DNA of 64,000 nucleotides from Candidatus Bathyarchaeota archaeon (GTDB lineage Archaea; Thermoproteota; Bathyarchaeia; Bathyarchaeales; Bathycorpusculaceae): assembly GCA_963767735.1 (NCBI GenBank), contig CAVYES010000006.1, forward strand, positions 224,001 through 288,000, in the 5' to 3' direction. Every line of letters begins with the position of its first letter. Positions within the stretch are counted from its first letter, which is position 1. Under the pieces are notes generated by a model that was given only the letters and a program-made list of their open reading frames with translations, was not told the DNA's origin and searched no databases. This document shows, piece by piece, positions 2,137-41,697 of the stretch. The position numbers were made by a program, and so were the translations under genes.

Positions 2137-3606
2137 TTAATCTTGTTGGTCTTTGCTTGGGGTGCTGTGTCCGCCTGGGCTCTTTTTTGTGGGTCTAACT
2201 TTGCCTAATTGTCTGAAAGCCCATCTAGTAGACCTGTATTTCCAAACGAGATGGTTTAGTGCCATGCGTGCCATGATTTGGCTATGGAAGTCTCCTCTGT
2301 GTCTCATTTGCAGGTAATACGTTGGCGTGAATATGTTGTCGTAAACCTTTTTCTTGGATTGTTCAAGGTTTTCAAGGGGTAGCAGCATGTTTTTGAAAAC
2401 TTGCATCTGCTCATGATACAGGTTCCAGTTCTCTGAGAACTCTAATCCTAATTCCTTCACGTAATCGTACAGCTGTGTGCCTGGGTAAGGAACGGCTTCA
2501 CACATGTAAACGTAGTTAGGCTTCGTTTTGTGAATGAAGTCGATTGTTTGCTGAAGCATCTCGGGGGTCTCGCCTGGGTACCCGATTACAAGCGAAATGG
2601 CTACTAGAACATCTGACTCTTTTGCCAGCTTTATGGCGTTTGCGTTCTGCTCAACCGTTGTACCCTTGCGCATAACATTTAGTAATTGTTGGCTGCCTGA
2701 CTCAACGCCAAAGTGGATTAGCTGGCAGTTCGTGCTTCTGAGCTTAGTTAAAAGCTGCTTGGACACTTTGTCCACTCTTGTTCGGCAGTCCCATGGCATA
2801 TCAAACTTTCTTGCCTTCATTTCATCGCAGATCGCTATTGCCCTTGGCACATCAAAGGTGAACGTATCGTCGTAGAAAGCGAAGGCTCCTGCTCCGAACG
2901 TGTCTCTTAGCCATTCAAGCTCGTCGACAACTTTGCTTGGTTTTCTTGCTCTGAAGCCTTTGCCGCACATTTTAGATGCTAAGCAGAAGGCGCAGTTAAA
3001 TGGGCATCCCCTGCTGGTTATGATGGGCATGTAAAGTTTCCCGTTAATCCTATACCTGCTCACGTCAAAGTGCTTATGAGCAGGGTAAGGAAGCACATCG
3101 ATGTCTTCCAAAAAAGGCCTGTCAGGCGTACGATAAACTTGACCGTTCTTTTTGAAAGTGATGCCGGCAACTTCGCCAAGGCTTTTGAGGTTACCCTCAG
3201 ATATTAAGCGTGCAAACTCCAGCATAGTTTGCTCCCCTTCGCCTCGTACCACAATATCTACATCTGAGCTTTCAGTGAAGGTTCGCTCATCCAAAACCGT
3301 AACGTGGGGTCCACCAATCATGGTTATGCAGTTGGAGAGGGCGGCTTTGGCGGCTTTCAAGATTTGCAGTGCTGGAAAGTAAGTGACTGTTGCGGCGGTT
3401 ACGCCGATGATGTCAGGGTTGAGGCTCTTGAACTTGTCTTCGAGGTCTTTTTGGCTTAGTCTGGAAACTTGGCAGTCAACAACGTCCACTTCGTACCCGT
3501 TTTGCTCAAGCACCGCCACCAGATAGCTGATGCCGAGTGGGATAAAGACGGCTTGCGGCACATCCTCTGGATAAGGTGGATTTGCAAGCACTACATGAGC
3601 TTTCAC
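2137..3606 (-). CDS. Cobalamin-binding radical SAM protein (class B), paralog 1
   Basis: N-terminal NPP...PLGISYL and GGPH B12-binding domain; TSRGCPFNCAFC (CxxxCxxC); FGVESGS. Confidence 0.9.
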   Translation of the reverse strand: MKAHVVLANPPYPEDVPQAVFIPLGISYLVAVLEQNGYEVDVVDCQVSRLSQKDLEDKFKSLNPDIIGVTAATVTYFPALQILKAAKAALSNCITMIGGPHVTVLDERTFTESSDVDIVVRGEGEQTMLEFARLISEGNLKSLGEVAGITFKKNGQVYRTPDRPFLEDIDVLPYPAHKHFDVSRYRINGKLYMPIITSRGCPFNCAFCLASKMCGKGFRARKPSKVVDELEWLRDTFGAGAFAFYDDTFTFDVPRAIAICDEMKARKFDMPWDCRTRVDKVSKQLLTKLRSTNCQLIHFGVESGSQQLLNVMRKGTTVEQNANAIKLAKESDVLVAISLVIGYPGETPEMLQQTIDFIHKTKPNYVYMCEAVPYPGTQLYDYVKELGLEFSENWNLYHEQMQVFKNMLLPLENLEQSKKKVYDNIFTPTYYLQMRHRGDFHSQIMARMALNHLVWKYRSTRWAFRQLGKVRPTKKSPGGHSTPSKDQQD

Positions 3607-3951
3607 GTTGTTTCCCCGACTTTAATATGGAAAACGGTTAAGCCAACTATTATGTGTTTTGCAAACGACACCGAATCGGCAAGTTTTGATGTAGAATGAT
3701 GTTTTGCCTTTTATCAGCATTTATTTATGGTTATTTTTGTTGAACAGGGCTTATTTTGGGCTCTTCTAGCATTTCAAGAAAGTACATTGTTACTAGTCAC
3801 GCATGTTCAAGATCATGCCTCACATGTCACTTTTGTTTGCGTCTTCAGGTAAGGCGTTTTTTCGAAGCATGGCATCTTTGCTTAGGCGTGTAAAGCAAGG
3901 GTTTTTATGGAATGTATTCAATAGGCGAAGTGTAGCCGCCTTGGAGAAAAC

Positions 3952-5523
3952 ATGAGGTTGTCAGCCGATTTAGCCATTATCAACGCAAATGTTCGAACAA
4001 TGAACCCGAACCAGCATTTTGCTCAAGCAGTCGCCATAAAGAGAAACAGAATCATCCTAGTCGGCACAAACCAGGAAATAAATAATGTAGTCGGCGAAAA
4101 AACCAAAGTAATCAACCTAGACGGCAAAACCGTCATCCCCGGATTAATTGACACTCATATTCACGTGGCAGACTTTGGCAGATGCCTGTTATGGCTTGAC
4201 TTGACCAGCGCGGACTCCATCGAGAACCTGAAACGTCTGGTAAGTGAAAAGGCAAAGCAAACGCCGGCTGGCAAATGGATTATCGGTCGCGGATGGAACG
4301 AGAACCGCTTCAAGGAAAAACGCTTGCCCAATCTTTCAGATCTAAACAAGGCTTCACCCGACAACCCTGTAATTCTGTACCGTGAGGCAGCAATGATATG
4401 CGCCACAAACGGAAAAGCCTTAACTTTAGCTGGAGTCACAACGCAAACGGCTGCGCCCCCCAGCGGAGCCATTGACAAAAACCCTCAGACGGGCGAGCTT
4501 ACGGGAATTTTACGGGACACCGCCACCAGCCTAATCTGGCAAGTGGTTCCCGAGCCAACCGTCGATGAGCTTGTAGACGCAGCGGCGGTGGCTTGCCAAA
4601 AAATCGTTGAAGCAGGAATAAGCAGCATCCATTGGATATTGACCTCGCAAAACGAGCTTCAGATAGTTCAAAGGCTTCAAGCAGAAAGAAAGATCCCGAT
4701 AAGGGTTAACATTGTAGTTCCCTATGAGTTCTTAAAAGAAATAGAGGAGTTTCATTCAACTGACAGTTCAATGCTGCATGTCGATGGAGTTTTCATCACA
4801 ACAGACGGGTACCTGGATTCTAAAACAGCCGCTTTGATGCAGCCCTACAGCGATGATCCAGATAACAACGGCAAAATGCTGCTGACTCAGCAAGAATTGG
4901 CGTCTTCAGTTGCCCACGTTTTAGAGTTGGGTCTTCAGCCAGTTATACATGCCATGGGCGACAAAGCTATTGACACAGCGCTGAAAGTAATCGAGCAGAC
5001 AGCATCACCCGCGGTTCGTTTTCGAATGGAGCAAGCAGCAGTTCTAAACAAGCAATTAATCAAGCGCCTCAAAGCCTCAAACGTCATAGTCACGGTTCAG
5101 CCCACTGTTATTGCAACCGAATTCGCGGTTTGGTCAGCTGCGGCGCGGCTTGGCAGGGGAAGGGCTAGCCTGATTCATCCGCTTAAAACCCTGCTGAGCG
5201 CAGGCGTTAAGGTTGCTGGCGGCTCCGATTGCCCAATGGAGCCTCTAAGCCCGATGCTTGGCATGCAAGAAGCAGTGCAAAGAACCAGTTTTCCCGAGCA
5301 ACGCTTAACCGTTGAGGAAGCTACTTGCATGTACACTGCTGATGCAGCTTACTGTTCTGGGGAGGAAAACTTGAAAGGTTCAATTGAAGAGGGCAAGCTT
5401 GCGGATTTAACGGTGCTATCGGAAGACCCATTTACTGTTGGCGCAAAAAAAATCAAAGGCATCAGCATTGAAATAACTATTATTAATGGAAAAATTGTTT
5501 TTCGCAAGGCATTAAATCACTAG
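3952..5523 (+). CDS. Amidohydrolase 3 family (YtcJ-like) protein with atypical metal ligands
   Basis: VIPGLIDTHIH, GRGW, HAMGD, GGSDCP, KGSIEEGKLADLTVL motifs. Confidence 0.85.
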   Translation: MRLSADLAIINANVRTMNPNQHFAQAVAIKRNRIILVGTNQEINNVVGEKTKVINLDGKTVIPGLIDTHIHVADFGRCLLWLDLTSADSIENLKRLVSEKAKQTPAGKWIIGRGWNENRFKEKRLPNLSDLNKASPDNPVILYREAAMICATNGKALTLAGVTTQTAAPPSGAIDKNPQTGELTGILRDTATSLIWQVVPEPTVDELVDAAAVACQKIVEAGISSIHWILTSQNELQIVQRLQAERKIPIRVNIVVPYEFLKEIEEFHSTDSSMLHVDGVFITTDGYLDSKTAALMQPYSDDPDNNGKMLLTQQELASSVAHVLELGLQPVIHAMGDKAIDTALKVIEQTASPAVRFRMEQAAVLNKQLIKRLKASNVIVTVQPTVIATEFAVWSAAARLGRGRASLIHPLKTLLSAGVKVAGGSDCPMEPLSPMLGMQEAVQRTSFPEQRLTVEEATCMYTADAAYCSGEENLKGSIEEGKLADLTVLSEDPFTVGAKKIKGISIEITIINGKIVFRKALNH

Positions 5524-5795: not shown

Positions 5796-6099
5796 GACGG
5801 AACTTAAAACGGCATAATAAAACTTGCGAGAAAGCCGAAAGATTTTCGACATATAAAGTTAAAGAAGTCATTACACCATAGCGCTCTGCGCTTGTCTATT
5901 AGGCTCTTCTAGATGTCCCTATTAGGCTTCCTGTGCAGCTACCCCATGTTTCTGCCATTTAGTTCCAACTCACTGTAGGTGGTTCAAGCCCTAAACCGAA
6001 AAAGCAACCCAAACAAGCCTTGACCCTAAACCACCTACCCATAGACCTACCCTAATATTTGTGCCAAAAAGCCGTCACAAAAATGGGGCGGTCTTGTCT

Positions 6100-7548
6100 C
6101 TATTTCATTTTGAGAAGTATCTTGGCTGTTTTCTTCGGGTGGCGAAAAGCCCTCCCAATTTTGGTTCTTGTAAACGTTGGGTTCGCCATGTTTGCCCTCA
6201 TGCATAGCTGTTGCAGGTCTTGGGCTGAGAACTCCGGCGTCTCAATCAACGGCTCCGTGGCTGCCAAGGCGTAGTCGCAGAAGCCTTCTCTTAGAAAACC
6301 GCCTTCTTTTGCCTGTTCGTATAATTGTGTTCCGTAAAGTGGCATGGCGATGCTGAATATGAGGCTGTCAGCGCCTAAGCGTCTAAGTTTATACGCAAAC
6401 TTTATGGTCTCTTCGATGTCTGCTTTGGTTTCTCCAATCAACCCCAAAACGAAGAAGCAGCCAACTTTAATCCCGACTTTCTTGCATAAAACAACCGCTT
6501 GCTCGACGCACTTCAAATCCAAATTCTTGCCAATAACATCGTTCACAACACGTTGTACTCCAGATTCAGGAGCCACACGGATTTTTTTGCAGCCAGACTT
6601 CTTCATCTTTCGCAACAGTGGTTCATCAAGTGTGTCTGCCCTAACACCATTAGGCGTAAACCAATCAACATGCAAGCCTCGCTCGATAATTAAGTCGCAT
6701 ATATCGGCCATGCGTTTTTTATCCAACGTCATGTTCTCGTCATAAAAATCGATCTGCTTAACCCCGTAAGTCTTCACGACTTGTTCAAGCTCATCAACCA
6801 CGTTTTTTGGGCTTCTGGCACGCCAGATTCTACCCCAAACGATACAGGTTGTGCAGAAAACACAGTTGTACGGGCAGCCTCTGCTGGTCGTTATGATAGT
6901 CCATGGTTTGCTTATCTCGCCGCGCAACGGATTTTCCTTAACTGCTTCGTAGTAAACTTTCATTGGAAGTAAATGCCTTGCGGGAAACGGCAAAGAATCC
7001 ATATCCTTAATAATAGCGCGTTTACCGGTGAGAACGGGTTTCCCATTTTTCTTGAAGCCTAAACCCTCTATGGTTGCGAAATCTTGTTTTCTTGATTCAA
7101 GCGCATCAACCAACTCGAAAATCGTGTTCTCAGGTTCGCCGATAACAACAAAATCCACCTCAGAATCCGAAAGACAAGCTTCCGGTCTAGCTGACGGATG
7201 TTGACCCATCAACACGACAGCAATCTTCTTGTTAACGGCCTTTACTGCATAGACTACTTCAAACGCGGTTTTTGACCAACCCGAAAAGGGAATCTCAACA
7301 ACAACCACATCAGGATTCCATTGCCTCACGCGTTCAGCAATCGTTTGTGCACTTAAACCAACACGGTACTTGGTTTCATCCATTTCCTCAAGGTTCTTCC
7401 AGCCTTCCGTTGGAGCATCAATAATGCTGACACTGTACTTTTTTTCTAAAACAGCGGCGACTGACGCTAAGACTATTGGTGGAAAAACGTTTGGTTTTCC
7501 CCAAGCTTTAGGCTGAATTCGAGGCGGATTAATCAAGCAAACACGCAT
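6100..7548 (-). CDS. Cobalamin-binding radical SAM protein (class B), paralog 2
   Basis: LINPP N-terminus, GQHP variant of GGPH, TSRGCPYNCVFC, APESG. Confidence 0.9.
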   Translation of the reverse strand: MRVCLINPPRIQPKAWGKPNVFPPIVLASVAAVLEKKYSVSIIDAPTEGWKNLEEMDETKYRVGLSAQTIAERVRQWNPDVVVVEIPFSGWSKTAFEVVYAVKAVNKKIAVVLMGQHPSARPEACLSDSEVDFVVIGEPENTIFELVDALESRKQDFATIEGLGFKKNGKPVLTGKRAIIKDMDSLPFPARHLLPMKVYYEAVKENPLRGEISKPWTIITTSRGCPYNCVFCTTCIVWGRIWRARSPKNVVDELEQVVKTYGVKQIDFYDENMTLDKKRMADICDLIIERGLHVDWFTPNGVRADTLDEPLLRKMKKSGCKKIRVAPESGVQRVVNDVIGKNLDLKCVEQAVVLCKKVGIKVGCFFVLGLIGETKADIEETIKFAYKLRRLGADSLIFSIAMPLYGTQLYEQAKEGGFLREGFCDYALAATEPLIETPEFSAQDLQQLCMRANMANPTFTRTKIGRAFRHPKKTAKILLKMK

Positions 7549-7603
7549 CTGAACTGTGCACTTCTAAACCAGAATACCATAATGCTTCGATTAAAACTTT
7601 GCA

Positions 7604-8593
7604 CTAAAACGGCAAAAAGAACAAACGCACACCGACAATGACGCCGACACACATCAACACCCACAACACGATCGTGACATCTCTTATCCGCAAAGCACCC
7701 AAAATCTTGTCCCCAGTCAACGGCTCCAAACTGTCCCCAAGAATGTACTGTCCAGGCTTCTCCAACTGAATCCGCAATGCACCAGCCATAGCCGCCATTG
7801 GCCACCCATGATTTCGGCTTGGCGTTTTTTTGTGGTCTCTGCGGGCGATTTTCCAAGCGTTTTTTGCGTCTTTGCCAAGGATAGCGGCAGACACAATCAT
7901 GAATAGCGCAGTTAATCTTGTAGGTATGTAGTTGACGACGGTGTCTAGGTTTGCGCTAAACCACCCTGTGTTTATGTGTTCTTTATCTTTGAAGCCTACC
8001 ATGCCGTCAAGCGTGTTTATAGCTCGAAAAGCGATTGCTCCAGTAACACCGAACAAAGCGAACGACAGCATAGGTGAGAGTTTGAAGTCAATTAGGTTTT
8101 CAGCCATCGATTCGATAACCGCGCTGCTCATCTGTGACCCGTTTAGGTTTGTTGAGTCTCTTCTTGAAAAATGACTATATTTCTTTGATTCATCAACCTC
8201 GTTTGCTTGGATGGCTTTGGCTGCAGCTTTCGCCCAATCAGTCTCAAGCTTAATGCAAATAGTCATCTTCAACAGAATAATGCCGATGAAAGCGTAAACA
8301 AAGATGCTAATGTAAGTGTAAATCGCCCATAAACCAAAATAGACTGGAAGCGTAAACGCACAAATCACCGTCAGCGCCAAGAGAACGCCTAAGAGTTTTT
8401 CGATTTTTGGATTTGGATTTTTGAAGACGGGCTCGATTTTTTTAGTAAATTTGCCCATTAGAACGGTTGGGTGAAGCTTGAAAAACCACCTGTCAGGAAA
8501 ATTGGGTGAAGGGTCACCAAGAACCAAATCTAACATTATCGCCAGAATTAGCACGATGATTGCGACTAAGCTATTTAAGAGGTTTAGCACCAA
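7604..8593 (-). CDS. cbiB: Adenosylcobinamide-phosphate synthase CbiB
   Basis: LDLVLGDP...HP, IESMAEN, RAINTLDGMVG, LDTVVNYIPTRLTA, SRNHGWPMAAMAGAL. Confidence 0.9.
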   Translation of the reverse strand: MVLNLLNSLVAIIVLILAIMLDLVLGDPSPNFPDRWFFKLHPTVLMGKFTKKIEPVFKNPNPKIEKLLGVLLALTVICAFTLPVYFGLWAIYTYISIFVYAFIGIILLKMTICIKLETDWAKAAAKAIQANEVDESKKYSHFSRRDSTNLNGSQMSSAVIESMAENLIDFKLSPMLSFALFGVTGAIAFRAINTLDGMVGFKDKEHINTGWFSANLDTVVNYIPTRLTALFMIVSAAILGKDAKNAWKIARRDHKKTPSRNHGWPMAAMAGALRIQLEKPGQYILGDSLEPLTGDKILGALRIRDVTIVLWVLMCVGVIVGVRLFFLPF

Positions 8594-8775: not shown

Positions 8776-10173
8776 CTAATTTTTTTGGCGAAGTTTCAGT
8801 TTTGCCGAACCTTTGAGATGTACCAGAATTGTTAATGCTGTCGAGATTGTCCAGAATTTTCTTTTGCGGTAGTTTCGGAAGAAGTAGCCTGGGCGCAAGT
8901 AGAAGTGATGGTAAGCTGCCTCGTCCAGAATTGCCAGTTCTTTCATGCTTAGCTGGGGGGTCTCAAAAATGGGTCTTTTCGTATCGTACTTGTCAAAGTC
9001 GGTTACTTTCAGCCACCCTTTCTCTTTAACCAAGTCATACAATGGCGTTCCTGGGAAAGGTGTTGCCACATGGAACCAGCTACTGTCGTCGGGAGAGATT
9101 TTCTCCACGAATTTGATGGTTTTCCACACACTTTTCTTTGTCTCGCCTGGAAAGCCAAGGATAACGTTTGAAATGGGCTTCAAACCGAGCTCTCTTACCC
9201 AACCGAAAACTTTCATTGTTAATTCAGGAGAAATTCCTTTTTTCATATCGTCTAAAACCTGTTGCGTGCCGGATTCAACTCCGAACCACACCGAGATGCA
9301 TCCAGCATCCTTCATCTTCGCAAGCAGCTCTTTTGTCAGCATATCAACGCGTGTACCACAGTTCCATTCGATTTTCAATCCGCGCTTTAGGATTTCATCG
9401 CAAAGTGCAACTGTTCTTGGCTGGTCAACCGTAAAAGCGTCATCACAAAACGTAAACGTGTTAATGCCGTAAGTTTTATTCAAAAACTCTAACTCGTCTA
9501 CGACGTTTTTGGGGCTTCGCATGCGGTACCTGCGTCCATGCATTCTAACTGTTGTGCAGAATTCGCACCAGTATACGCAGCCTCTGCTCGTTGTCAAGTA
9601 AAGTATATTTTCATATTTGCGTAGGGTCTCCATTGGCCAAAGATGGCGAGCTGGAAACGGCAAAGCATCCAACTCTTCAATGTATGGTCTATCTGGATTC
9701 CGCGTGATTTTGCCGTTTTTCCTGCAAGTGGTGCCAGCTACATCGGAGTAGCTTTTGCCTGCTTCAATCCTCTGAACAAGCTCCAACAGCGTATTTTCTC
9801 CTTCTTTCCTCACGACAACGTCTAATTCTGGGCACTCTTCGAGTGCTTTGTTATCCCAGAAGGTAACATGTGGACCACCTGCAACGGTTATGCAGTTTGG
9901 GCAAGCATCTTTTGCAATCTTTAACAATTTGAGCGAAGACTGATATGTAAGAGTGGAAGATGTGGCCCCAACAATGTCTGGTTTACGCTTACTAATCTCG
10001 CTCTTAAAATCTTCTAACGAAAGCCTTAGTATTTGGCAATCAATTACATCAACTTGATAGTTGTTTTTCTCTAAAACAGCCGCCAAATATCCTAAACCTA
10101 ACAGTGCAAAGGGCATGTGAGTTTCTGTGCCCGCTGGAGCGGCAGGATTAACTAAGGTTACATGGGGCTTCAT
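8776..10173 (-). CDS. Cobalamin-binding radical SAM protein (class B), paralog 3
   Basis: LGLGYLAAVL, GGPH, TSRGCVYWCEFC, FGVESG. Confidence 0.9.
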   Translation of the reverse strand: MKPHVTLVNPAAPAGTETHMPFALLGLGYLAAVLEKNNYQVDVIDCQILRLSLEDFKSEISKRKPDIVGATSSTLTYQSSLKLLKIAKDACPNCITVAGGPHVTFWDNKALEECPELDVVVRKEGENTLLELVQRIEAGKSYSDVAGTTCRKNGKITRNPDRPYIEELDALPFPARHLWPMETLRKYENILYLTTSRGCVYWCEFCTTVRMHGRRYRMRSPKNVVDELEFLNKTYGINTFTFCDDAFTVDQPRTVALCDEILKRGLKIEWNCGTRVDMLTKELLAKMKDAGCISVWFGVESGTQQVLDDMKKGISPELTMKVFGWVRELGLKPISNVILGFPGETKKSVWKTIKFVEKISPDDSSWFHVATPFPGTPLYDLVKEKGWLKVTDFDKYDTKRPIFETPQLSMKELAILDEAAYHHFYLRPGYFFRNYRKRKFWTISTALTILVHLKGSAKLKLRQKN

Positions 10174-11620: not shown

Positions 11621-11665
11621 AATTCATTTAAATGTTATATGCAACTTATAAGGAGAAAAAGAAAA

Positions 11666-17737: not shown

Positions 17738-17888
17738 TCAGCAAATCAAAATCCTCATTATTTACTCCTAACTTTTCCCAGTTATCTCTGGTGATTCGCG
17801 CAGTTTGGGAAAAATCTAAATTTTGCATAAAGTAAATGAACCTGAACGCGCTTATGGGGTACAAAACTCTATTGTTTCAGGGAAGAAC

Positions 17889-24505: not shown

Positions 24506-24509
24506 GCAA

Positions 24510-31759: not shown

Positions 31760-31805
31760 ATACCCTACAACTATCTAAAGATAATATAGACTTTGTCGTG
31801 ATTAT

Positions 31806-32738: not shown

Positions 32739-33620
32739 TGGCCACTTCAAAGCCAGCTAGAGGATTGATAGCGCTTCTGCGCCTTCCCTACTGGCTGATG
32801 ACAGGTGGTTTATCTCTCCTAACAGCCTTCGCTATCACCAGAAAACCATTTAGCCTCAGCATCCAAACGGATTTGCTGATTTTCTTCTCCATGGCATTCA
32901 TAACTTCCGCAGGCTTCGCAATCAACGATTACTTCGACAGGGAAAGCGATGCGGTAATCAAGCCAAAACGCCCCATACCTTCAGGTGCACTGTCGTTAAA
33001 GCAGGTGGTAGCAGTGTCAAGCGTACTTTTCGTTGCAGGTTTGATCATGGCGTCTTATATTAACTGGTTAAGTTTCGCAATTATCGCCGCTGATTCTGCC
33101 CTTCTTCTGGTTTACTCAATAGTCGTGAAGCGCAAATCAGGCTTTGCAGCGAATGTTTTAGTGGGCATTTTAACAGGTACCGCCTTCATGTTTGGAGAAG
33201 CCACAATCACCATCCCTCCGACGATTAGCTTGATTTCTTTAAGCCTCTACCCCATAGCTTTTGGAACAATAGGCGGCAACGTCCTGCGCGATGTCCTAAG
33301 CCTTGATGGCGACTCAAAAACTGGGTACCCAACGCTCCCGCAGAAAATTGGCATCGGCAAATCGGTGAAAATGGCTGCTGTGTTTTTCACATTAACGGGG
33401 TTGCTTGCGCCTCTTCCTTACTTCATAGGCAAGTTTACAGTTTACTATTTGCCTCCTATTCTTTTCTGGAGCGTTCTTCTAATTTACTGTTCAATCCGCC
33501 TAGCTAACCTCAGCTTCAACGTTGACCAATGTGCGAAAATATGAGCGCATAGTCACGATGTCGATGATTCTTCTTCCGTTAGCATTAATAATCGAGGCAA
33601 CACTTGGAGGGTTACTATGA
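32738..33620 (+). CDS. UbiA-family prenyltransferase, DGGGP synthase-like (frameshift near 33508)
   Basis: INDYFDRESD..KPKRPIPSG, RDVLSLDGD...PTLP; the alternative frame continues NVRKYERIVTMSMILLPLALII to TGA 33620, overlapping the next ATG. Confidence 0.8.
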
Positions 33621-35084
33621 CCAAAACCAAAAGCATCTGCCCTGAATGCCAGAAAAAAATCGATGCACAACTAACTCAAGCTAACGGAAAAATCCAAATC
33701 ACCAAGCAGTGCCCCGAACATGGCGCTTTTGAAGCTACTCACTGGCAAAGCACTGACATCTACAATCACATGCAAACTTATGACCAATTTCAGTACCTCG
33801 GCGATTTGAACGCTCCCAAAGACCCAAAAGGTTGCCCCTACGTCTGCGAAACATGCAACAACCATGCTTCAGGCACGGTCATAGGCGTAATAGACGTTAC
33901 AAAACGCTGCAACTTCAAATGTGCAGTTTGCTTCTCAACTTTTCCGCAGCAAGAAGTCGATTATGAGCCAACTAAAGAAGCGCTTATAGATATGCTTGAG
34001 TTCGTAAGCAAAGCTAACCCTAAGCCTCCAGCCATTCTTTTTTCAGGCGGTGAGCCGCTGGAGCGCGAGGATATGCCTGAAATAATCGAGTGCTGCACAC
34101 AAGCTAAAATTTATGACTATATTAGCGACCAACGGGACACATTTGGTTGACACCCCGGGGCTGGCAAAGAAGCTGAAAGATAGCGGCTTAAACATCGTTT
34201 ATTTATCGTTTGACAGTTTCCACGAAGAATTCAACAAGAAAATTAGAGGGCAAGAACTCGTAGATATGAAACTTAAGGCTATTGAGGTTTGCCGAAAATA
34301 CGACATGGAAATCATCTTGGTCAACACTTTGATGAAAAGCTTGAACGATAAAGAAGTCGGCGACATGATACGGTTCGCGGCTAAGAACACTGACATAGTG
34401 CGAGGCTTAATTTTCCAACCTATCGCCTTCACAGGCAGAGCCACCGAGAACCCGTTCCGCGAAAATTTCCGTGAATGGTCATTTGCAGAGGACGTTGAAA
34501 AACAAACAGACGGCGAAGTAAAAACCACCGACCTCTTCCCCATGTCGGTTATGACTTCTCCGATAAAGATAATGCGTAAATTCATGCAAAAACCTTGGCC
34601 CCTGTTCTCTTGCAGCCCACAATGCGGAATCGTAAACTGGGTTTACGTTTCAAAAAACGGCAAAATGTTCCCAATCAACCGATTCGTCAACTTTGACCGA
34701 TTCTTTAACTACATCAGAAAAACCGCTGAAAATGCAGAGTCAAAGGGCAAATTTTCTCTGCTCTCATCACTATTCATGGCATCAATGCTTTCAATGAACA
34801 TGCTCGAAGTCACCAAGGAAGTCGGCATGCCAACCCTGATGAAATCAATCATGAGGATGCATCTTTCACCATCATACCAGTCACTGGGAAAAATCCGCAG
34901 ACGCATCTTCTTGCTTGGCTGCATGGCGTTCATGGACTCATACAACTTCGACGTCAACCGAGTCCGTCGATGCGTGGTTCACTACATTACGCCCGACAAG
35001 AAGATCATACCTTTCTGCGCATACAACAATATCCATAGGGTAGCAATCGAGAAAGAGTACGCTGAAAGGCATAAGACGGCTTAA
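33617..35084 (+). CDS. tes: Tetraether lipid synthase Tes / GDGT-MAS (MJ0619 family) radical SAM homolog; +1 frameshift near 34088
   Basis: TKSICPEC...KQCPEHG, GCPYVCETCNNH, DVTKRCNFKCAVCF, FSGGEP, LATNG, FQPIAFTGR, CMAFMDSYNFDVNRVRRCVVHYITPD..IIPFCAYN. Confidence 0.8.
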
Positions 35085-35614
35085 CTTAGCACTTGAATGT
35101 TTAAGACGCAATAGTTGTTTACATTGTTATTTGTAAACTGGTAAGTTGCTGAATCTGAATTATATTGCCAAAGCTCAAAAACTACCGAGTAGCTTCCAAC
35201 TTGATTTTCCGTAACAGGGACTGATTTTTGCCAGCTTTGGCCGTTCCCCAAGGTAAAATTATACGCGTCGATGGGCTGAGTATTAACTGGCAGAGTTGTA
35301 ATGTCATTGGTGATTTTCACTAAAACTTCGTATTGCACAGTGCCTCCCATATTGTTCACAACGGTAACAGGCTCATTGAATGTGCTGTTCTGGTTAGCTA
35401 CCAAAACTGACGGGTAATCAGCGGCTTTGTTTTGTGAATCAAGCAGATAAATCGTGCTGTACCCCGCTGGCGCCGGCCTAAAAAACACAAAGTAACTTGC
35501 AGCTACTGCAGAAATAATTATTAAGGCAACAAAAATGGCGACGGCATAGCCTTTTTCATCGTTTAAACCAATTTTTCTGCCAAGCTTCTTCGTTTTTTCT
35601 AACCATGTCGGCAT
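35081..35614 (-). CDS. DUF1616-like membrane-anchored protein
   Basis: N-terminal TM, YSTIYLLD..KAADYP, V.N.MG..YEV; likely start ATG 35614. Confidence 0.65.
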   Translation of the reverse strand: MPTWLEKTKKLGRKIGLNDEKGYAVAIFVALIIISAVAASYFVFFRPAPAGYSTIYLLDSQNKAADYPSVLVANQNSTFNEPVTVVNNMGGTVQYEVLVKITNDITTLPVNTQPIDAYNFTLGNGQSWQKSVPVTENQVGSYSVVFELWQYNSDSATYQFTNNNVNNYCVLNIQVLS

Positions 35615-36293
35615 CCAGAAGGCCTCTAAATATAGTGCTAAATATTTCAATTCCTGACTTAAATTTTTTGAGCTTGGTTTTCCCGTATTTTCGGGCTTTA
35701 TAGGTGGTGGGAACTTCAACCATGTTGTATCCTTCTTTTGCGAATTTTACAAGCATTTCAGTAGCGTAAGCCATGTCTCCCTCGTTTAACTTTACTTTGT
35801 CGATGGCTTCATGAGAAATTGCTCGGAAACCTGATTGTGTGTCGCTGAGGAATTGGCTATAGAAGAAGTCGAAGCAGAATGTAATCACTTTGTTTCCTAT
35901 GAAATTCATGAATCCCATGGCTTTGTTTGGGTCATACATGCGAGTGGCTAAAACCATGTCTGCGTCTTTCTGAATCATCATATCCAGCAAGCGGTTGATG
36001 TGTTTTACCTCGTAGGTGCCATCGCCGTCAACCATCACGATAATGTTGCCTTTCGCGTTTTTCATGCCTGTTTTAAGGGCGACGCCGTACCCGCGTCTTG
36101 GTTCAATAATAAGCTTGCAAAAACTTGTGTCTTTAACGATTTCTATTGTTCCATCAGTAGAGTTGCCATCAACAACAATTATCTCCTTTGGGTACTCCAA
36201 GTCTTTATAGATGGTTGTGACAGCTTCTAAGATGTTTCCTGCTTCATTGAGTGTTGGAATTACTACCGAGACCAGTTCAACTTTCGATGTCAT
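35556..36293 (-). CDS. GT2 glycosyltransferase (DPM synthase-like)
   Basis: SVVIPTLNE, VVDGNSTDGT, RGYG, DGDGTY, DTQSGFR. Confidence 0.9.
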   Translation of the reverse strand: MTSKVELVSVVIPTLNEAGNILEAVTTIYKDLEYPKEIIVVDGNSTDGTIEIVKDTSFCKLIIEPRRGYGVALKTGMKNAKGNIIVMVDGDGTYEVKHINRLLDMMIQKDADMVLATRMYDPNKAMGFMNFIGNKVITFCFDFFYSQFLSDTQSGFRAISHEAIDKVKLNEGDMAYATEMLVKFAKEGYNMVEVPTTYKARKYGKTKLKKFKSGIEIFSTIFRGLLDADMVRKNEEAWQKNWFKR

Positions 36294-36334
36294 GGTAACT
36301 CTCATCTTAAGGCTATATTGTTTCACCATCTTAG

Positions 36335-37493
36335 TTAAATAAGCTCTTCGTATATCCCGATTAATGTTTCAACGTTTTTATCCCAGCTGAACTTTTCTTC
36401 CATCCTTGCTCGAAGCTCTACTTTACGCGAAGAAAAATCAATATTTGCAAATTCCAAAACTGCGTTTGCAAGTTGCTCAGGCTGGTTAGATGGCACAAGT
36501 TTTCCGTAATCTTCCATAAGAATTTCACTTATTCCTCCAACGTTTGTGGCTATTACTGGCAATCCGCAAGCCATGGCTTCAAGCGCAACCAAAGGCAAGC
36601 CTTCTCCCGATTTTGATGGCAGCACAAAGAAGTCTGCGGCGTTATAGTAAAACGGTAAATCTTCATCTTTAACAAAGCCTGTAAGCCTAAAATTGTTTTC
36701 TATCCCTAACTGTCGTGTCATCATTTGAACGTTGTTTAGATCTGGTCCTTTTCCAACAACTAGGAAAGTAATCTTTGGGTTCTTTTTGACGGCTATGTTT
36801 GCGCTCTCTATTAACGTGTCAACGCCGTTTTTGTAAACAAGCCTTCTGACGGTTAAAGCCACGATTGCGTCTTGGGCTATTCCAAGTTTTCTTCTCATTT
36901 CTTCTCGTTTCCCCGTCAAAGGCCTGAAACGGACCAGGTCAACTCCGTTGTGTGACACTTTAATCTTGTTTGGTTTTGCGCCTAAACTTAAAACATAATC
37001 TTTTGTTGCGTTGCTCACAGTGATTATTTTGTCGGCTTCTTTTAGCGTCTCCTTTCCAACTGCCAAATCATTTAACCGTTCAACGTTGTCAAAAATGCTG
37101 TCGTATTCAATGAAGGTGTTGTGCTGCGTCAACACAAATGGCTTATTGTACCTCTTCGCAAGTTTGGCTGCAATAAGCGACGTTAGGTACGGGTGACCAT
37201 GCGCATGGACAATTTTGCTTGATTTTACAGCTTTAAGAAAAGTTTCAAAACTTGTCACTGTCGGAATCGAGTAAGGGATTCCCAGGCGGAAACCCGTGTT
37301 TAACGATTCATAACATTCGACGTTTACGCCGTCAACAACATAGTTTTTTGGCTGTTCCAATCCGGTTCGTGACCACCATGGGCTCAAAATTTCTTTGAAG
37401 TAGCCGCTTGCTTTGCTCATAAACAACCCTTTCTATTCCGCCAGTATGGGGCAAAAAGGTGTGAGTAACAATGCAAAGCCTTGTTTGAACCAT
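36335..37493 (-). CDS. GT4 glycosyltransferase (frameshift near 37350)
   Basis: N-terminal FLPHTGGIERVV in ORF 37332..37520; HNGVD, KNGVD, EGLPLVALEAMACGLPV in the main ORF. Confidence 0.85.
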
Positions 37494-37711: not shown

Positions 37712-38193
37712 TTATTGTTTTGCCTGTGCATTTTTAGTGGCGCGTGTATAAACGTTTGATGATACGCCTGCAACCAAGGCGCCTATGGCGTCGTTTGTGA
37801 TTGAGCCGAGTTTCTTTAGAATTCCGGGTTTAGCTTGGTCAAACCGCACGTACTCGAAAACTGCTCTGGTTCCGCCGATGTAGCTGGCAATCGCTATTCC
37901 TAAAACTTCGTCAGCAACTGGTCCTGGTCTACCCTTGAACCTTTCCTGCGTTAAGCCGGGAATCAAGCCCTTCTCTGCATCTTCCTGCGCTCGGAAAGCA
38001 GCACTTCAAGGATGGAAACATTGACATCTGAGAGGACATCGAGGAATTCTTCTCTGAACATTTCAACGGCTTTTTCCTCTGTTTCCACGCCTGGGTGAGG
38101 CACAAACATTTCAAGTGCACAGTGAATGAGGCTTTTTAGGGATATGTCTTTTTTTTCAAGAAACTCAAGTAAGGCTGGCATTTCATTGCTCAT
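37712..38193 (-). CDS. cobZ: Alpha-ribazole-phosphate phosphatase CobZ (PgpA-like), frameshift near 38000
   Basis: MFVPHPGVET...LSDVNV then VADEVLGIAIASYIGGTRAVFEYVRFDQAKPGIL...DAIGALVAG. Confidence 0.75.
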
Positions 38194-38528
38194 AATTTCA
38201 ACCTCAATTTTTAAAGGTAAAGTGTGCTTTAAGCGTTGCGTGACTCTGATTACCGTAATGCTTATATGAAAAGGTTGGATAAACCAACCAAACATGGCGG
38301 TGATAATTTGCTGAACTTCCAGAAAAAACCTGATATTCCGCTCAAAATATTATGGCAAGGCAAATTATCTGAATGTTTGAAGAGTAAAACAACATTTTTG
38401 TGGTTACCTGTTTCTGCAACTGAAGAAACCGGTTTTTTCGGAAAATCAAATATTTCAAATTCACCTAAAACCTAAACAAAACAAAATAATGGTTGAGGGT
38501 GAAGATACTTAGGGAGGAAAAATTAGAA

Positions 38529-39215
38529 ATGAAAGTTGTTGCTTCATGGAGTGGCGGAAAAGACAGTTGCTATGCTTATTATTTGGCAACCCAGCAAGGC
38601 TACGAAGTAATTAGCCTTTTAACTATGATGATGAGTGAAACCAAATCAAACTTCCACATGATACCCTCCGGCATACTTGACGCTCAAGCAGAAGCCATCG
38701 GAATCCCACTTCTAAAGCAGGTGACTACGGCTGAAACCTACGAGAACGATTTCAAACGTGCACTGCGAATACTCAAAGCAAAGGGCGCCGAAGGCTTAGT
38801 TACAGGGGACATCTACGAGGTAGCGGGGCACGAAGAAGGTTGGCTTGGGCGAGTGCTCAAAGAAGTCGGGTTGAAGCCAATAAAGCCTCTTTGGATGGGT
38901 GACACAAAACAAATTTACCTTGACTACTTAAAAACGGGTTTCAAAGCAACCGTGGTGCGCACTAACCTCAGCAAGTTGGGTGTGGAGTGGCTTGGGCGAG
39001 TTCTGGACAAAAAATTCTACGATGACATCCTGAAGCTTGGCAATGTTGATTCTTGCGGGGAAGGCGGCGAATACCATACCGTAGTGACTGATGGACCGAC
39101 TTTTAAGAAAAAGATTGAAATTCTTGAAACGCAAAAGCATAAGCTTGACGGCGGCTTCGGATATTTAGAAATTAAAAGATTCGAAGTTAAGCCCAAAGGC
39201 AAGGTAAAATCGTAG
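38529..39215 (+). CDS. DUF71/Dph6-like ATP pyrophosphatase (canonical motifs), first gene of cob operon
   Basis: SWSGGKDS, QAEAIGIP, TGDI, PLW, DSCGEGGEYHT.V.DGP.F. Confidence 0.9.
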   Translation: MKVVASWSGGKDSCYAYYLATQQGYEVISLLTMMMSETKSNFHMIPSGILDAQAEAIGIPLLKQVTTAETYENDFKRALRILKAKGAEGLVTGDIYEVAGHEEGWLGRVLKEVGLKPIKPLWMGDTKQIYLDYLKTGFKATVVRTNLSKLGVEWLGRVLDKKFYDDILKLGNVDSCGEGGEYHTVVTDGPTFKKKIEILETQKHKLDGGFGYLEIKRFEVKPKGKVKS

Positions 39216-39216
39216 A

Positions 39217-40317
39217 ATGGACAAGACTCTTGACGTACTGATTGCTCATAACCCGCTAAAAGCGGAAGCTTTCCTCGATGAAATCGACGGAAAAAACCCT
39301 TTATTTATTTGTACAATAGCCACCACTGAAACAGGCAAAATCTCTGGCATATCCGCGGCTGGAGCAAACCCAGAATTCACCGATTACACACCCCCAGCAG
39401 ACGCTGAACTGCTCTTGCTGGGCAAATGCAAATCCATAGCCGGCGTGCCCATAACTCCAGACGGCATTCCGACACCAGGCTTGATAACTATGTCGGCTCT
39501 ACACTTAGCCGATATTCCAGTGCTCATTGCCAGCGGCGGACTAAAAGTGAAACCGCAGATTCCCTTCTTAGATTTCGGCGGCAACCCCGGAAGAGACATC
39601 CGAACAGGCAACGCCGTTGATAACGTTGCGGAAGTAATCGAGCGCGCGAAAATTGCGGGGCAGAATTTGGCTAAAGCCGTGGATTATCTTGTGATTGGCG
39701 AGAGTATCCCTGGGGGAACAACAACCGCTCTTGGTGTATTGTCGGCTTTAGGCGTGAAAGCGGAGGGAAAAGTAAGCAGCACTCTGCCTGAAAACCCCCA
39801 CAGCTTGAAAGCAGAAACCGTCAAGGCAGGATTAAAAGCGGCTGGCGAGAGTTTTGGCAGCTTAGCAAACAATCCCGTTAAGGCTATTTCCTGCGTCGGC
39901 GACCCCATGATGGCTGCTTTCTCGGGACTGGTGATTGGTGCGGCATCGCAGGTGCCCGTGCTGATGGCTGGCGGAACACAGATGAGCGCTATCTTAGCCC
40001 TTGTGAACGCTTTGGAACCCGATGTTCTCTGCAACGTGGCGGTGGGCACAACAAGATGGGTTGCAAAAGACAAGTCATCCGACCTCAAAGGCATAGTTAC
40101 CCAGTTCTGCGATGTCCCGATTTTAGCGGCGGACCTAAACTTTGGCTCCTCACGTTTCCCAGGCTTGCGGACATATGAAACTGGTCTTGTGAAGGAAGGC
40201 GTCGGCGCAGGAGGCGCTTCTATCGCGGCGATGGCGAAGCTTGGCGGCGCAGTCACAGCTGACCTACTGCTTAAAGAGATAGAGCGTAATTATGCTCTGC
40301 TGATGGGTCTGAAGTGA
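39217..40317 (+). CDS. cobT: Archaeal NaMN:DMB phosphoribosyltransferase CobT
   Basis: TETGKISGISAAG, TPPADAE, PTPGLIT, GESIPGGTTTA, GDPM, AGGTQM, KEGVGAGG. Confidence 0.9.
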   Translation: MDKTLDVLIAHNPLKAEAFLDEIDGKNPLFICTIATTETGKISGISAAGANPEFTDYTPPADAELLLLGKCKSIAGVPITPDGIPTPGLITMSALHLADIPVLIASGGLKVKPQIPFLDFGGNPGRDIRTGNAVDNVAEVIERAKIAGQNLAKAVDYLVIGESIPGGTTTALGVLSALGVKAEGKVSSTLPENPHSLKAETVKAGLKAAGESFGSLANNPVKAISCVGDPMMAAFSGLVIGAASQVPVLMAGGTQMSAILALVNALEPDVLCNVAVGTTRWVAKDKSSDLKGIVTQFCDVPILAADLNFGSSRFPGLRTYETGLVKEGVGAGGASIAAMAKLGGAVTADLLLKEIERNYALLMGLK

Positions 40318-40318
40318 A

Positions 40319-41089
40319 TTGGTTACTAAAGAGTTAAAGAACCTTCTTTCTTTCCTCACAATTTTTCCAGTAACAATGGATAAAGACATGCTGACTGACT
40401 GCGCCAAAAACATGTGGGTTTTCCCATTAATCGGCGCATTCATCGGTTTATTAGCTGGAGTGTTCGGCTGGGTAGCTTACCACTTTTTGCCCGACATAGT
40501 GGTCGGCGGCTTAGTGTTGGCTTTGTTGCTGCTGATTACCGGGCTTCACCACACCGACGGCTTACTTGACTTCGGCGACGGCGTCATGGCTCACGGCACA
40601 GCTGAACACAAAATTGAGGTTATGCATGACCAACTCACAGGCGCAGGCGGCTTAACGTTGGGCATCATGACCATTCTGATCACCGCTTTAGCCATCGGAC
40701 AAATCAGCGGCAATGGTGAACTCAAAATTCCCTTAATCATCGGCGGCATCATCGCCATAGAAGCGTCAGCAAAGCTTGCCATGGTTATTATGGCGTGGGC
40801 TGGAAAATCAGTCCATCAAGGCATGAACTCACCCTTCTTAGAAGCTATGCATGGGAGCAAAGGCAACTTGCGCCTCATCGCTGCGGTGGTGATTTCTTTT
40901 GCGGTTGCTTTGCCTCTGCTGGGTTGGGCAGGCGCTTTCACCGTGATTGCAGCCATTATCACCAGCCTTGTCATGGTTGCCATTGCGCACAAGCACTTCA
41001 ACGGAGTCACAGGCGACGTGTTCGGAGCAACTAACGAGATAACCAGAATGGTCTGCGTGATCGTCCTGTTGGCGGTGGTTATACGGTAA
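40319..41089 (+). CDS. cobS: Cobalamin 5'-phosphate synthase CobS, copy 2 (canonical)
   Basis: FLTIFP, TGLHHTDGLLDFGDG, MHD..TG, GVTGDVFGATNE. Confidence 0.9.
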   Translation: MVTKELKNLLSFLTIFPVTMDKDMLTDCAKNMWVFPLIGAFIGLLAGVFGWVAYHFLPDIVVGGLVLALLLLITGLHHTDGLLDFGDGVMAHGTAEHKIEVMHDQLTGAGGLTLGIMTILITALAIGQISGNGELKIPLIIGGIIAIEASAKLAMVIMAWAGKSVHQGMNSPFLEAMHGSKGNLRLIAAVVISFAVALPLLGWAGAFTVIAAIITSLVMVAIAHKHFNGVTGDVFGATNEITRMVCVIVLLAVVIR

Positions 41090-41100
41090 CCGCACTCGTT

Positions 41101-41697
41101 ATGGCTGGCGGAAAAGGAACCCGCATGAAAGTCGCACAGGAGAAGCCGCTGATTAAAGTCTGTGGCAAACCCGTTATCTTATACGTGCTGGAGGCGTTGA
41201 AAAACGCTAAGAAAATTGATTCCGTCGTTGTCGCTGTCAGCTGTTGCACCCCCAAAACTGCCCAGTTTCTGAGTCAGTTTCCAGTCCAAGTGGTTGAAAC
41301 TCCCGGGGTAGATTATGTTTCCGATATGGGCTACGCTAGTAAAGCACTCAAACTCGGCGTTTTCTTAGCTATCGCAGCCGACTTGCCGCTGGTCACAGGA
41401 GAGGTGCTGGATAAAATTGTTGAACGTTACGAGCGATGCGGCAAACCAGCATTAACTGTTGCCGTTCCGCTTGAAACTAAAACCAAGCTTGGCATGTGTG
41501 TTGAGTACTCGTTCAAAATCGGCGATAAAGACGTAGTTCCCGTCGGCATCAATGTTATAGATGGGCATAAACGGTACGGCGACGAATGGCTCGACCAAGA
41601 CATCTGCCTGTTAAACCTAGATGAACTGGCAGTAAATATCAACACTGTACAGGAAATGCAAATAGCCGAACGCTTAGTATCAAAGCATGCGAAATAA
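41101..41697 (+). CDS. cobY: CobY guanylyltransferase, copy 2
   Basis: (TALV)MAGGKGTRM..EKPL, YVSD, ADLPL, VGINVI, NINT. Confidence 0.85.
   Translation: MAGGKGTRMKVAQEKPLIKVCGKPVILYVLEALKNAKKIDSVVVAVSCCTPKTAQFLSQFPVQVVETPGVDYVSDMGYASKALKLGVFLAIAADLPLVTGEVLDKIVERYERCGKPALTVAVPLETKTKLGMCVEYSFKIGDKDVVPVGINVIDGHKRYGDEWLDQDICLLNLDELAVNINTVQEMQIAERLVSKHAK

Follow-up and report, generated by a model that had tools for sequence, protein, structure and literature searches.

We favour, with moderate confidence, the reading that a gene island at positions 2137-41697 of the window couples late cobamide assembly with the synthesis, tailoring and glycosylation of tetraether lipids, and that this arrangement is restricted to particular lineages of soil and peat Bathyarchaeia. 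The window is the whole 64,000-nt stretch analysed here (positions 224001-288000 of contig CAVYES010000006.1 in assembly GCA_963767735.1, Candidatus Bathyarchaeota archaeon; coded G000:C6), taken from a genome of 3.04 Mb in 10 contigs that is 95% complete. Our observations concern domain content, family scores, conserved gene order and phyletic pattern. Pfam and NCBIfam scans of 40 open reading frames (ORFs; window 15-42630) recovered the gene content listed in an earlier, sequence-only reading: six B12-binding radical S-adenosylmethionine (SAM) genes with both PF02310 and PF04055 (rB1-rB6), a Tes-like gene next to a UbiA gene, a radical SAM/SPASM gene, a class I methyltransferase, six glycosyltransferases, an "epimerase" of the short-chain dehydrogenase/reductase (SDR) type, and the cobamide nucleotide-loop genes (CbiB, CobD-like, CobY-like/CobS and CobT/CobS/CobY-like). 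The interval also holds three Dph6-like ATP-pyrophosphatase paralogs and DUF362, DUF6693 and DUF1616 proteins. Throughout, rB proteins are compared in phmmer bits and families are tested against curated NCBIfam cut-offs, using for split genes the intact orthologues from the same genus (locus L024). Genomes and loci carry our codes (G### and L###); f1 and f7 are families, and g1 (the genus of the window), g16 and g21 are genera.

The lipid side of the island centres on a second tetraether-synthase paralog, Tes2 (33617-35084, plus strand). In the window this gene is split over two frames (162 and 293 bits on the Tes model NF045702), and its intact orthologue (L024:15440-16906) reaches 465.6 bits, a borderline pass of the cut-off of 450. 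Tes2 aligns end to end with GDGT-MAS (7TOL chain A; 379 bits, residues 3-482) and is collinear with it in the N-terminal Zn ribbon (PF23545), the radical SAM CxxxCxxC motif and the C-terminal Cys motifs. The genome also encodes a canonical Tes (G000:C6:22829-24251, 200 kb away and outside the window), which gives 562 bits for NF045702 positions 2-388; Tes2 proteins share 37-39% identity with the canonical Tes of their own genomes. In a set of 1.84 billion representative proteins, a single other full-length 50%-identity cluster was present, at 48%, and the next reach at most 38%. Family membership predicts that Tes2 forms glycerol dialkyl glycerol tetraethers (GDGTs) from archaeol-type lipids. 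Directly upstream lie the SDR "epimerase" (31806-32738, plus strand; GalE model 168.6 vs 262) and the UbiA prenyltransferase (32738-33544, plus strand). The latter had been labelled a digeranylgeranylglyceryl phosphate synthase (DGGGPS), a label that is not established, as the protein falls below every DGGGPS cut-off (164.5 vs 296 and 92.8 vs 353); after the DGGGPS and prenyltransferase models, ChlG is the next family (88.8 bits). It is one of four similar-scoring paralogs in the genome and shares 27% identity with the nearest of them.

The Tes2, CobD-like and Gms-like genes are each split by a 1-nt insertion relative to three relatives, at 34089-34091, near 22730 (compared with G003 and G012) and near 28047, respectively. 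Because the extra base at the Tes2 site is absent from contigs of three public runs (X1, X2 and X4, from three studies), we read this split as probably an assembly error; one of those contigs is otherwise identical over 167 nt. The best public run holds 0.29 of the sampled words, and the strain itself was not found in any of the runs. For all three genes assembly errors are more probable than pseudogenes. The canonical Tes has a frame break near its C-terminus too, followed by stops in the continuing frame, which would agree with an assembly that has indel errors throughout, and split genes are also frequent in the assemblies of relatives.

A Tes2 orthologue (query, the C-terminal 323 aa) occurs in 22 of the 24 other members of the genus at 84-95% identity and, among 16 other genomes of the order, only in G040 (48%). 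The Tes2 type was found in 78 of the 401 genomes of the class, in family f1 (66/103) and in genus g16 of family f7 (11 of the 18 f7 genomes), and a search of these 401 genomes gave no match in the other families of the class. Gene maps of 17 genomes from 8 genera revealed a common core. Its left part reads (CbiB)-CobD-like-DUF6693-GT2a-GT2b-GT4a-DUF362-Gms-like-CobY-like-CobS1 (GT denoting glycosyltransferases), and its right part, facing CobS1, reads SDR-UbiA-Tes2 followed by DUF1616-GT2d-GT4b and often by Dph6-like-CobT-CobS2-CobY-like. In all 17 mapped genomes UbiA-Tes2 lies within 5 kb of CobS1 with the core order kept; SDR is present in 15, and the Gms-like gene falls within the fetched stretch in 14. 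In g16 the same genes stand in another order. Conservation of gene order in relatives, on which the sequence-only reading hinged, was thus borne out, the core order being kept across two Bathyarchaeia families. A wider set of 56 CobS1 loci (10 kb on either side of CobS1, some cut by contig ends) contains CobY-like and SDR genes in 55 each, UbiA and Tes2 in 53 each, the Gms-like gene in 46, DUF1616/GT2d/GT4b in 42, GT4a, GT2b and GT2a in 38, 37 and 35, the cobT operon genes in 28-32, and any rB gene in 20.

The public records of 54 of the 56 CobS1-related loci are labelled Candidatus Bathyarchaeota or Bathyarchaeia (one of them Candidatus Bathycorpusculum soli), and many isolate names of CobS1-bearing loci point to peat, bog, fen, palsa or soil. 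The placement in Bathyarchaeia is upheld. A contig labelled Candidatus Limnocylindrales bacterium (L063) carries a complete archaeal island, with proteins 71-91% identical to those of the window (CobS1, 82%), and is likely a mis-binned contig.

Between the two halves of the core, a divergent intergenic region of 46 nt (31760-31805) separates CobS1 from the SDR gene. It contains a conserved ATATAG(A/G)CTTTGTCGTG block and is kept almost base for base in an alignment of 41 sequences.

On the cobamide side, three enzymes pass their curated cut-offs: CbiB, adenosylcobinamide-phosphate synthase (7604-8593, minus strand; NF002281, 282.7 vs 273; TIGR00380, 237.9 vs 165.9), CobT (393.4 vs 240) and CobS2 (TIGR00317, 155.5 vs 110). 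CobT and CobS2 form one operon with Dph6-like 3 and CobY-like 2 (38493-41697, plus strand). CobS1 (30929-31759, minus strand) stays just below the cobS cut-off of 110 (108.9; 108.7 in G003). Both CobY-like nucleoside triphosphate transferases fall below TIGR00454 (cut-off 174.7) and NF045495 (cut-off 250): CobY-like 1 (30309-30932, minus strand) with 116.5 and 97.2, CobY-like 2 with 133.9 and 109.6. The CobD-like pyridoxal-phosphate enzyme of the threonine-phosphate decarboxylase family (22067-23093, minus strand) is split into two ORFs that match PF00155, and its intact orthologues score 269.5 and 285.8 against 290.55 for TIGR01140. CobS is duplicated in every genome checked (G001, G008 and G040 and, by synteny, G346 and G401), and it is the only loop enzyme of which this is true. 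On the right flank of the island, beyond 41697, lie CbiQ/EcfT (PF02361) and two energy-coupling factor (ECF)-type ATPases (42825-45285, minus strand; ECF_ATPase_1, 280 vs 315), followed by housekeeping genes; ECF/CbiQ orthologues also follow the cobT operon in G001, G010 and G012.

That the island brings its own cofactor supply, as had been suggested, holds for the nucleotide loop only, and full self-supply is unsupported: CbiC and two CbiZ lie elsewhere in the genome, and a second CobD-CbiB pair on contig C4 outscores the island copies (CobD 313, CbiB 324.6). The C4 pair (C4:70001-79000, L105) stands beside dph5 (diphthine synthase) and a pair of thiolase genes, and no lipid or rB gene is in the vicinity. 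In G346 and G406 no CbiB other than the island copy was found, and in these two and in G040 no strong CobY-type gene other than the CobY-like one next to CobS1; because they are the only copies found there, we take these two genes to do the cobamide work in G346 and G406.

With CobS1 as query, no CobS was found in any of the 16 Tes2-negative f1 genomes outside the genus (there are 20 Tes2-negative f1 genomes in all), of which 14 have B12-binding proteins; when 18 of the Tes2-negative f1 genomes were re-examined (G357 and G365 left out), such proteins were found in 16. From the lack of CobS in these Tes2-negative genomes of f1 we conclude that gain or loss of the island goes along with that of the capacity for finishing cobamides.

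The radical SAM/SPASM gene (27662-29087, minus strand, split) has, by sequence comparison, the published architecture of a synthase (Gms) of glycerol monoalkyl glycerol tetraethers (GMGTs), i.e. an AhbD-like core with an N-terminal extension of about 117 aa. Its intact orthologue (474 aa; Radical_SAM PF04055 and SPASM PF13186) scores 308.7 on the AhbD model (cut-off 500) over residues 118-467. In its 117-aa N-terminal domain the protein can be aligned with 20 homologues belonging to other classes of the phylum. This domain is missing in the six other AhbD-like proteins of the genome, in which the Gms-like protein is the only one of its kind; homologues aligning from about residue 10-40 occur in 179 of 401 genomes of the phylum. 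A Pfam search with the N-terminal 121 aa returned nothing but a sub-threshold rubredoxin-like match, and an ESM Atlas look-up gave nothing more specific than clusters named "radical SAM/SPASM" from Bathyarchaeota and Thermoproteota. In island copies the N-terminal domain bears four Cys, and because this motif differs from that of gmm-coupled homologues we regard the protein as a variant. In 9 of 20 loci of other classes (L111-L113, L116, L118-L121 and L128) the gms-like gene adjoins, mostly overlapping, a B12 radical SAM gene, whose best match in the window is rB3 or rB5 (35-38%). The Gms-like gene of G040 has four rB genes at a distance of 4 kb.

The six rB proteins, each with B12-binding and Radical_SAM domains, are encoded at 2137-3606 (rB1, 489 aa), 6100-7548 (rB2), 8776-10173 (rB3) and 15402-16778 (rB4) on the minus strand and at 17823-19301 (rB5) and 19330-20700 (rB6) on the plus strand. 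Their pairwise identities span 30-59% (rB3/rB5 59%, rB4/rB6 53%, rB1 to rB3 or rB5 about 41%, rB2 to all others about 33%). Of 17 B12-binding matches in the genome about 14 are of class-B radical SAM size, six of them within 18.6 kb (expected number of such clusters, 1.5e-7). We used the nine gms-adjacent B12 radical SAMs of other classes as proxy references in place of named Grs, Gmm, Cgm, Pgm and Ted. Against this proxy set rB1-rB6 score 156-318 bits (rB2, the most divergent paralog, 156-198; rB3, 267-314; rB5, 263-318), compared with at most 93 bits against solved class-B enzymes (for rB5, AprD4 is the best at 92.9 and TokK gives 71.6). In a tree of 23 sequences, rB1-rB6, five further paralogs of the genome, one homologue of G228 (second family) and the gms-adjacent enzymes form one group (100/100), in which a contig-C8 paralog groups with rB1; a further two B12 radical SAMs of the genome lie apart from it. 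By these comparisons rB1-rB6 belong to one family with B12 radical SAMs found beside gms in other Thermoproteota, and the data fit, without proving it, the published multi-copy Gmm2 homologues. TIGR04190, tried as a model for Grs (rB1-rB6, 53-98 bits), was rejected as such because it came over cut-off in no control genome, Sulfolobus acidocaldarius included.

In at least 26 of 43 genomes a homologue of rB5 shares a contig with Tes2 at a distance of no more than 30 kb (at least 16/20 in g1, 3/15 in other f1 genera and 7/8 in g16; lower bounds, since the best 150 of 371 matches were listed), against a chance expectation of 7-22%. Within the genus of the window the rB genes form an insertion that separates CbiB from the CobD-like gene, two genes that adjoin in G346. 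The rB2 gene adjoins CbiB also in G012 and G014, an rB4 orthologue adjoins the CobD-like gene in 10 of the 56 CobS1 loci, and an rB6 orthologue lies within 10 kb of CobS1 in 7 of them.

Glycosyltransferases occupy three places in the island. GT2a (similar to AglJ and polyprenyl-phosphate-hexose synthases), GT2b and GT4a (23789-24505, 24510-25514 and 25477-26700; together 23789-26700, plus strand) all score below curated cut-offs, and the trio is kept also in the second family. DUF1616, a membrane protein, the AglJ-like GT2d and GT4b (35084-37426, minus strand; glycosyltransferases at 35556-36329 and 36335-37426) are likewise kept in the second family. The sixth gene (29301-30014, plus strand) is GT2 fragment-like, with a PF00535 match that begins at model position 13; no orthologue of it was found in 73 related loci.

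The interval holds further genes. DUF362 (26697-27659, minus strand; PF04015) is the constant neighbour of the Gms-like gene and is present in 40 of the 56 CobS1 loci. The small DUF6693/DUF4234 protein (23167-23721, minus strand) always adjoins the CobD-like gene, and in two g21 genomes the two read as one ORF (L040:9668-11725 in G390, 685 aa, with the CobD-like part at residues 325-677, and L030:13542-15191 in G246, 549 aa), which may be a fusion or an ORF-calling artefact. A conserved small protein of no recognised family (37963-38295, minus strand; about 160 aa in relatives) is found in 28 of the 56 loci. The three Dph6-like proteins score 141.4, 118.0 and 99.7 on TIGR03679 (cut-off 197.3), and none passes. 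Dph6-like 1 (17021-17737, plus strand; PF01902) is not called Dph6 because it scores 99.7 on this model; Dph6-like 2 (21175-21924, minus strand) is present in 11 of the 56 CobS1 loci; Dph6-like 3 (38493-39215; 141.4 on this model) immediately precedes, upstream, cobT-cobS-cobY in 32 of the 56 loci, and it may catalyse a step, so far overlooked, in activating the lower ligand or assembling the loop.

Around the rB genes lie an Amidohydro_3 metal hydrolase (3952-5523, plus strand; PF07969, E 9e-97; no NCBIfam family above cut-off), whose orthologue adjoins rB1 in G014 and rB2 in G012; a small protein with a weak AsnC ligand-domain match (10300-10731, minus strand); an AsnC/Lrp-type helix-turn-helix regulator (10796-11341, minus strand), with orthologues inside the rB block of G012 and G014; and the class I SAM methyltransferase (14571-15401, plus strand; PF08241 and related; best NCBIfam match CpaM-like, 59 vs 180), which adjoins an rB gene in 7 of the 56 loci and also in G228. 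A 937-aa PQQ-like beta-propeller/filamin-repeat protein (11639-14452, plus strand; weak PF13360 and PF00630 matches) is probably a surface protein and has tandem paralogs in relatives. Proteins of this kind flank and interrupt the rB block (window 15-2042 and 11639-14452) and have multiplied in relatives (G012 has five matching ORFs, of which four exceed 900 aa); they may lie at the cell surface and might be modified by the glycosyltransferases encoded close by. A second cluster, on contig C8 (7692-30478; L106 and L107), combines a Dph6-like gene (58% identical to Dph6-like 1) with three rB-family genes (one read in three frames, 59-72% identical to rB3), an AhbD-like gene that lacks the N-terminal domain, a small protein of the B12-binding type and CbiZ, so that Dph6-like genes adjoin rB3/rB5-type genes twice in the genome. 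Among the housekeeping genes to the right of the island are two tandem MoeA paralogs (414 and 416 aa; window 54889-57384).

Parts of this picture have counterparts in the literature. Passages of Garcia et al. (2024, PMC11214058) describe Gms as homologous to AhbD and extended at the N-terminus by about 100 aa (COG4001), state that gms and gmm are often found clustered, and credit Bathyarchaeota with many Gms homologues and with several Gmm2-clade ones per genome; the same passages report GMGTs from peat, with abundance correlated with temperature, and place most peat Gms with Bathyarchaeota. The gms-gmm(-grs) clusters described there, as in Thermococcus guaymasensis and others, share with the island an AhbD-type SPASM enzyme with an N-terminal extension together with B12 radical SAMs. 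The island differs from them in that its Gms-like gene adjoins DUF362 and is uncoupled from a B12 enzyme, in having six B12 paralogs rather than one, and in adding a Tes paralog, UbiA, glycosyltransferases and cobamide genes. The published threshold for Gmm homologues is E<=1e-65 at a length of at least 400 aa. Homologues of Gmm can methylate (Cgm, Pgm) or desaturate (Ted), as shown in a preprint (Garcia et al. 2025, 10.1101/2025.10.20.683597). The ted-hgs-grs locus of Candidatus Bathyarchaeota B1_G15 described there likewise concerns a Bathyarchaeal B12 radical SAM distantly related to Gmm, with Ted acting on GDGTs; unlike that locus, the genome of the window has no AttH/Hgs and rB1-rB6 are below the 500-aa Ted threshold. 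For Tes2, which aligns over its full length with Tes/GDGT-MAS (MJ0619, PDB 7TOL), a precedent for a second, differently behaving Tes is MA_1114 of Methanosarcina acetivorans, which gave only trace macrocyclic archaeol according to a passage of Zeng et al. (2022, PMC8941075); in contrast to both, Tes2 is confined to two Bathyarchaeia families and always follows its own UbiA. Compared with archaeal nucleotide-loop assembly, with which the island shares a CbiB, CobT and CobS2 that pass curated cut-offs, the island has a duplicated CobS, sub-threshold CobS1, CobD-like and CobY-like proteins, a Dph6-like gene at the head of the cobT operon, and lipid and glycosyltransferase genes interleaved.

In the coupled scheme that we favour, the last cobamide steps would be carried out by CbiB, the CobD-like and CobY-like proteins, the two CobS and CobT with the ECF/CbiQ transporter; Tes2 would be fed by its own divergent UbiA prenyltransferase; the Gms-type radical SAM enzyme would cross-link two biphytanyl chains to yield GMGT; B12 radical SAMs of the Gmm/Ted/Grs kind, in a set that varies, would introduce methyl groups, double bonds or rings into the chains; and the polyprenyl-phosphate-sugar-type and GT4 glycosyltransferases, with the SDR, would perform glycosylation. 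We propose that these modules are co-located, and jointly present or absent, because B12 enzymes need cobamide. The substrates and products, the division of labour among the paralogs, and lipid rather than surface protein as the target of the glycosyltransferases are what we infer. The lipid interpretation already advanced in the sequence-only reading is partly supported. Its link to lipids is stronger than that reading could show, given the intact Tes2 orthologue passing its cut-off, the Gms architecture, the nearness of rB1-rB6 to gms-adjacent enzymes and the synteny; it loses the DGGGPS label and the link to backbone-methylated lipids (see below), and it must accommodate a variable rB block.

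A number of observations weigh against the coupled scheme. The rB block is a variable neighbour of a conserved core: in G346 and G401 the whole core fits in about 17 kb and their two or three class-B genes lie on other contigs, and G406 gave no rB5 match at E<=1e-45 among the matches listed. Kinship inflates all counts, which effectively represent two or three independent lineages. None of rB1-rB6 reaches an NCBIfam cut-off, the best models (BchE, HpnJ, ApyD and a P-methyltransferase) giving 160-240 bits vs 480-750 (e.g. rB1 on BchE, 225 vs 481). The inside of the 100/100 group is a polytomy, and the label "Gmm-like" rests on gms neighbours and on a tree that left out the named references (Grs, Gmm, Cgm, Pgm, Ted, HpnP, BzaD/E and BchE) and non-lipid outgroups. 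At 456-492 aa, rB1-rB6 are shorter than the lengths given in the preprint for Cgm (>495 aa) and Ted (>=500 aa), and AttH/CrtC (PF07143), sought as a marker of the Ted-Hgs pair, gave no match in the genome. The coupling of gms to gmm was not found in f1, where the neighbour of the Gms-like gene is DUF362 and not a B12 enzyme. The four-Cys site of the Gms-like protein is missing in eight mutually related gmm-coupled homologues, which have 1-3 Cys before the radical SAM motif; a ninth (G652) keeps three of the four. GT2a and GT2d resemble AglJ, an enzyme of protein N-glycosylation. The motif of the 46-nt block is not repeated in the other intergenic regions of the window and no operator is common to the modules; its one other match in the window, with 3 mismatches, lies inside rB3, and its 10-mer core is at chance level (4 found vs 4.2 expected).

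Several of these points fit modules that are co-inherited and functionally separate, an explanation that we judge unlikely while giving it more weight than any other rival. Here the rB enzymes, with the Dph6-like proteins, class I methyltransferase and amidohydrolase, would act on a non-lipid substrate (peptide or protein, cofactor, or sugar), cobamide finishing would be one unit, Tes2, UbiA and the Gms-like gene would be lipid genes, the glycosyltransferases would serve a surface protein, and proximity would come from descent and a common need for B12 rather than from one pathway. In favour of separate modules speak the cores standing alone in the small genomes G346 and G401, the 17 of 43 genomes with no rB block near the core among the matches listed, the AglJ likeness, the missing common operator, enzymes of ribosomally synthesized and post-translationally modified peptides and P-methyltransferases among the best curated-model matches, the large surface-type beta-propeller proteins interleaved with the rB genes, and the rB/Dph6-like/AhbD-like/CbiZ cluster on C8, far from any Tes. 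They are countered by an rB family much nearer to gms-coupled enzymes than to any solved class-B enzyme, by the several Gmm2-clade copies in Bathyarchaeota mentioned in the passages of PMC11214058, by the rB cluster of G040 4 kb from its Gms-like gene, and by proximity to Tes2 that recurs in the second family (at least 7 of 8 g16 genomes) despite rearrangement.

Other explanations concern single components. Methylation of unactivated carbon is class-B radical SAM chemistry, and the methyl groups that butanetriol-based dialkyl glycerol tetraethers (BDGTs) carry derive from methionine; with six paralogs that have no assignment, one of them might be the backbone methylase that converts glycerol to butanetriol or pentanetriol (BDGTs and their pentanetriol counterparts, PDGTs). 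We think this improbable, given that BDGTs are described in a passage of a review as a lineage-specific biomarker of the marine genus Baizosediminiarchaeum, while the relatives of the window's genus are soil and peat metagenome-assembled genomes and Candidatus Bathycorpusculum. That passage places BDGTs in another genus of Bathyarchaeia, no observation made here connects them with the island, and the connection to BDGTs and PDGTs made in the sequence-only reading is not supported. A comparably slim prospect is that CobS1 and its CobY-like partner have left cobamide synthesis for lipid synthesis and attach a phospho-linked head group, via a GDP-activated intermediate, to the Tes2/UbiA lipid, mirroring the chemistry of CarS and a CDP-alcohol phosphatidyltransferase. 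The chemistry of CobY and CobS is analogous to that of the latter pair, and such an analogy, together with the position of CobS1/CobY-like facing SDR-UbiA-Tes2 across the conserved 46 nt, the distance of at most 5 kb from Tes2 even after the rearrangement in the second family, the duplication of CobS alone among loop enzymes and the lower score of CobS1 (108.9 vs 155.5 for CobS2), would be in keeping with recruitment. We assign it a low probability because the island CbiB and CobY-like genes do cobamide work in G346 and G406; the sole strong CobY-type gene of those genomes and of G040 must serve cobamide there, and the finding of no CobS where Tes2 is absent (the 16 f1 genomes outside the genus) agrees with an ordinary function in cobamide synthesis. 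Least probable of all, and in our view very much so, is that the island builds a modified corrinoid or other tetrapyrrole-type cofactor, with AhbD/NirJ-like and BchE-like radical SAM enzymes and Dph6-like amidating enzymes working on side chains and a UbiA that esterifies in the manner of the prenyltransferase ChlG. The best curated matches of the SPASM enzyme are indeed tetrapyrrole side-chain enzymes, BchE is a top match of the rB proteins, ChlG is the next family for UbiA, and loop genes are interleaved throughout; on the other hand, every score on a tetrapyrrole model stays far short of its cut-off, Tes2 is a Tes over its full length, the SPASM enzyme has the Gms-type N-terminal domain that is missing in the six other AhbD-like proteins of the genome, and five conserved glycosyltransferases would be out of place in such a pathway.

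The enzyme families, the clustering of gms with gmm and the multi-copy Gmm homologues of Bathyarchaeota are already in print, and the supplementary datasets of Garcia et al. 2024 (Bathyarchaeota Gms and Gmm2 sequences) may contain these very proteins. Novel in the island are its private Tes/UbiA pair, a Gms variant with four Cys, cobamide genes interleaved with the others and the presence of CobS in two copies. In the literature searched we found no published account joining GDGTs, cobS or cobalamin, radical SAM enzymes and Bathyarchaeota, and for the pairing of a Tes paralog with UbiA only unrelated review text.

Tetraether lipids, including GDGTs, cross-linked GMGTs and methylated forms, serve as climate and environment proxies, and the island provides a concrete, conserved candidate set from uncultured Bathyarchaeota: a private Tes/UbiA pair, a Gms variant and up to six B12 radical SAMs. 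The duplicated CobS facing a lipid operon is a small, testable oddity, and if CobS1 had indeed been recruited to lipid synthesis, with a GDP-activated phospho-intermediate passing to or from the Tes2/UbiA lipid, this would be a way of attaching head groups that is not known from membrane lipids of any kind. Overall, our analysis suggests that lipid tailoring in these archaea depends on finishing cobamides, which, if true, would link their membrane composition to the supply of B12 and cobalt in soil.

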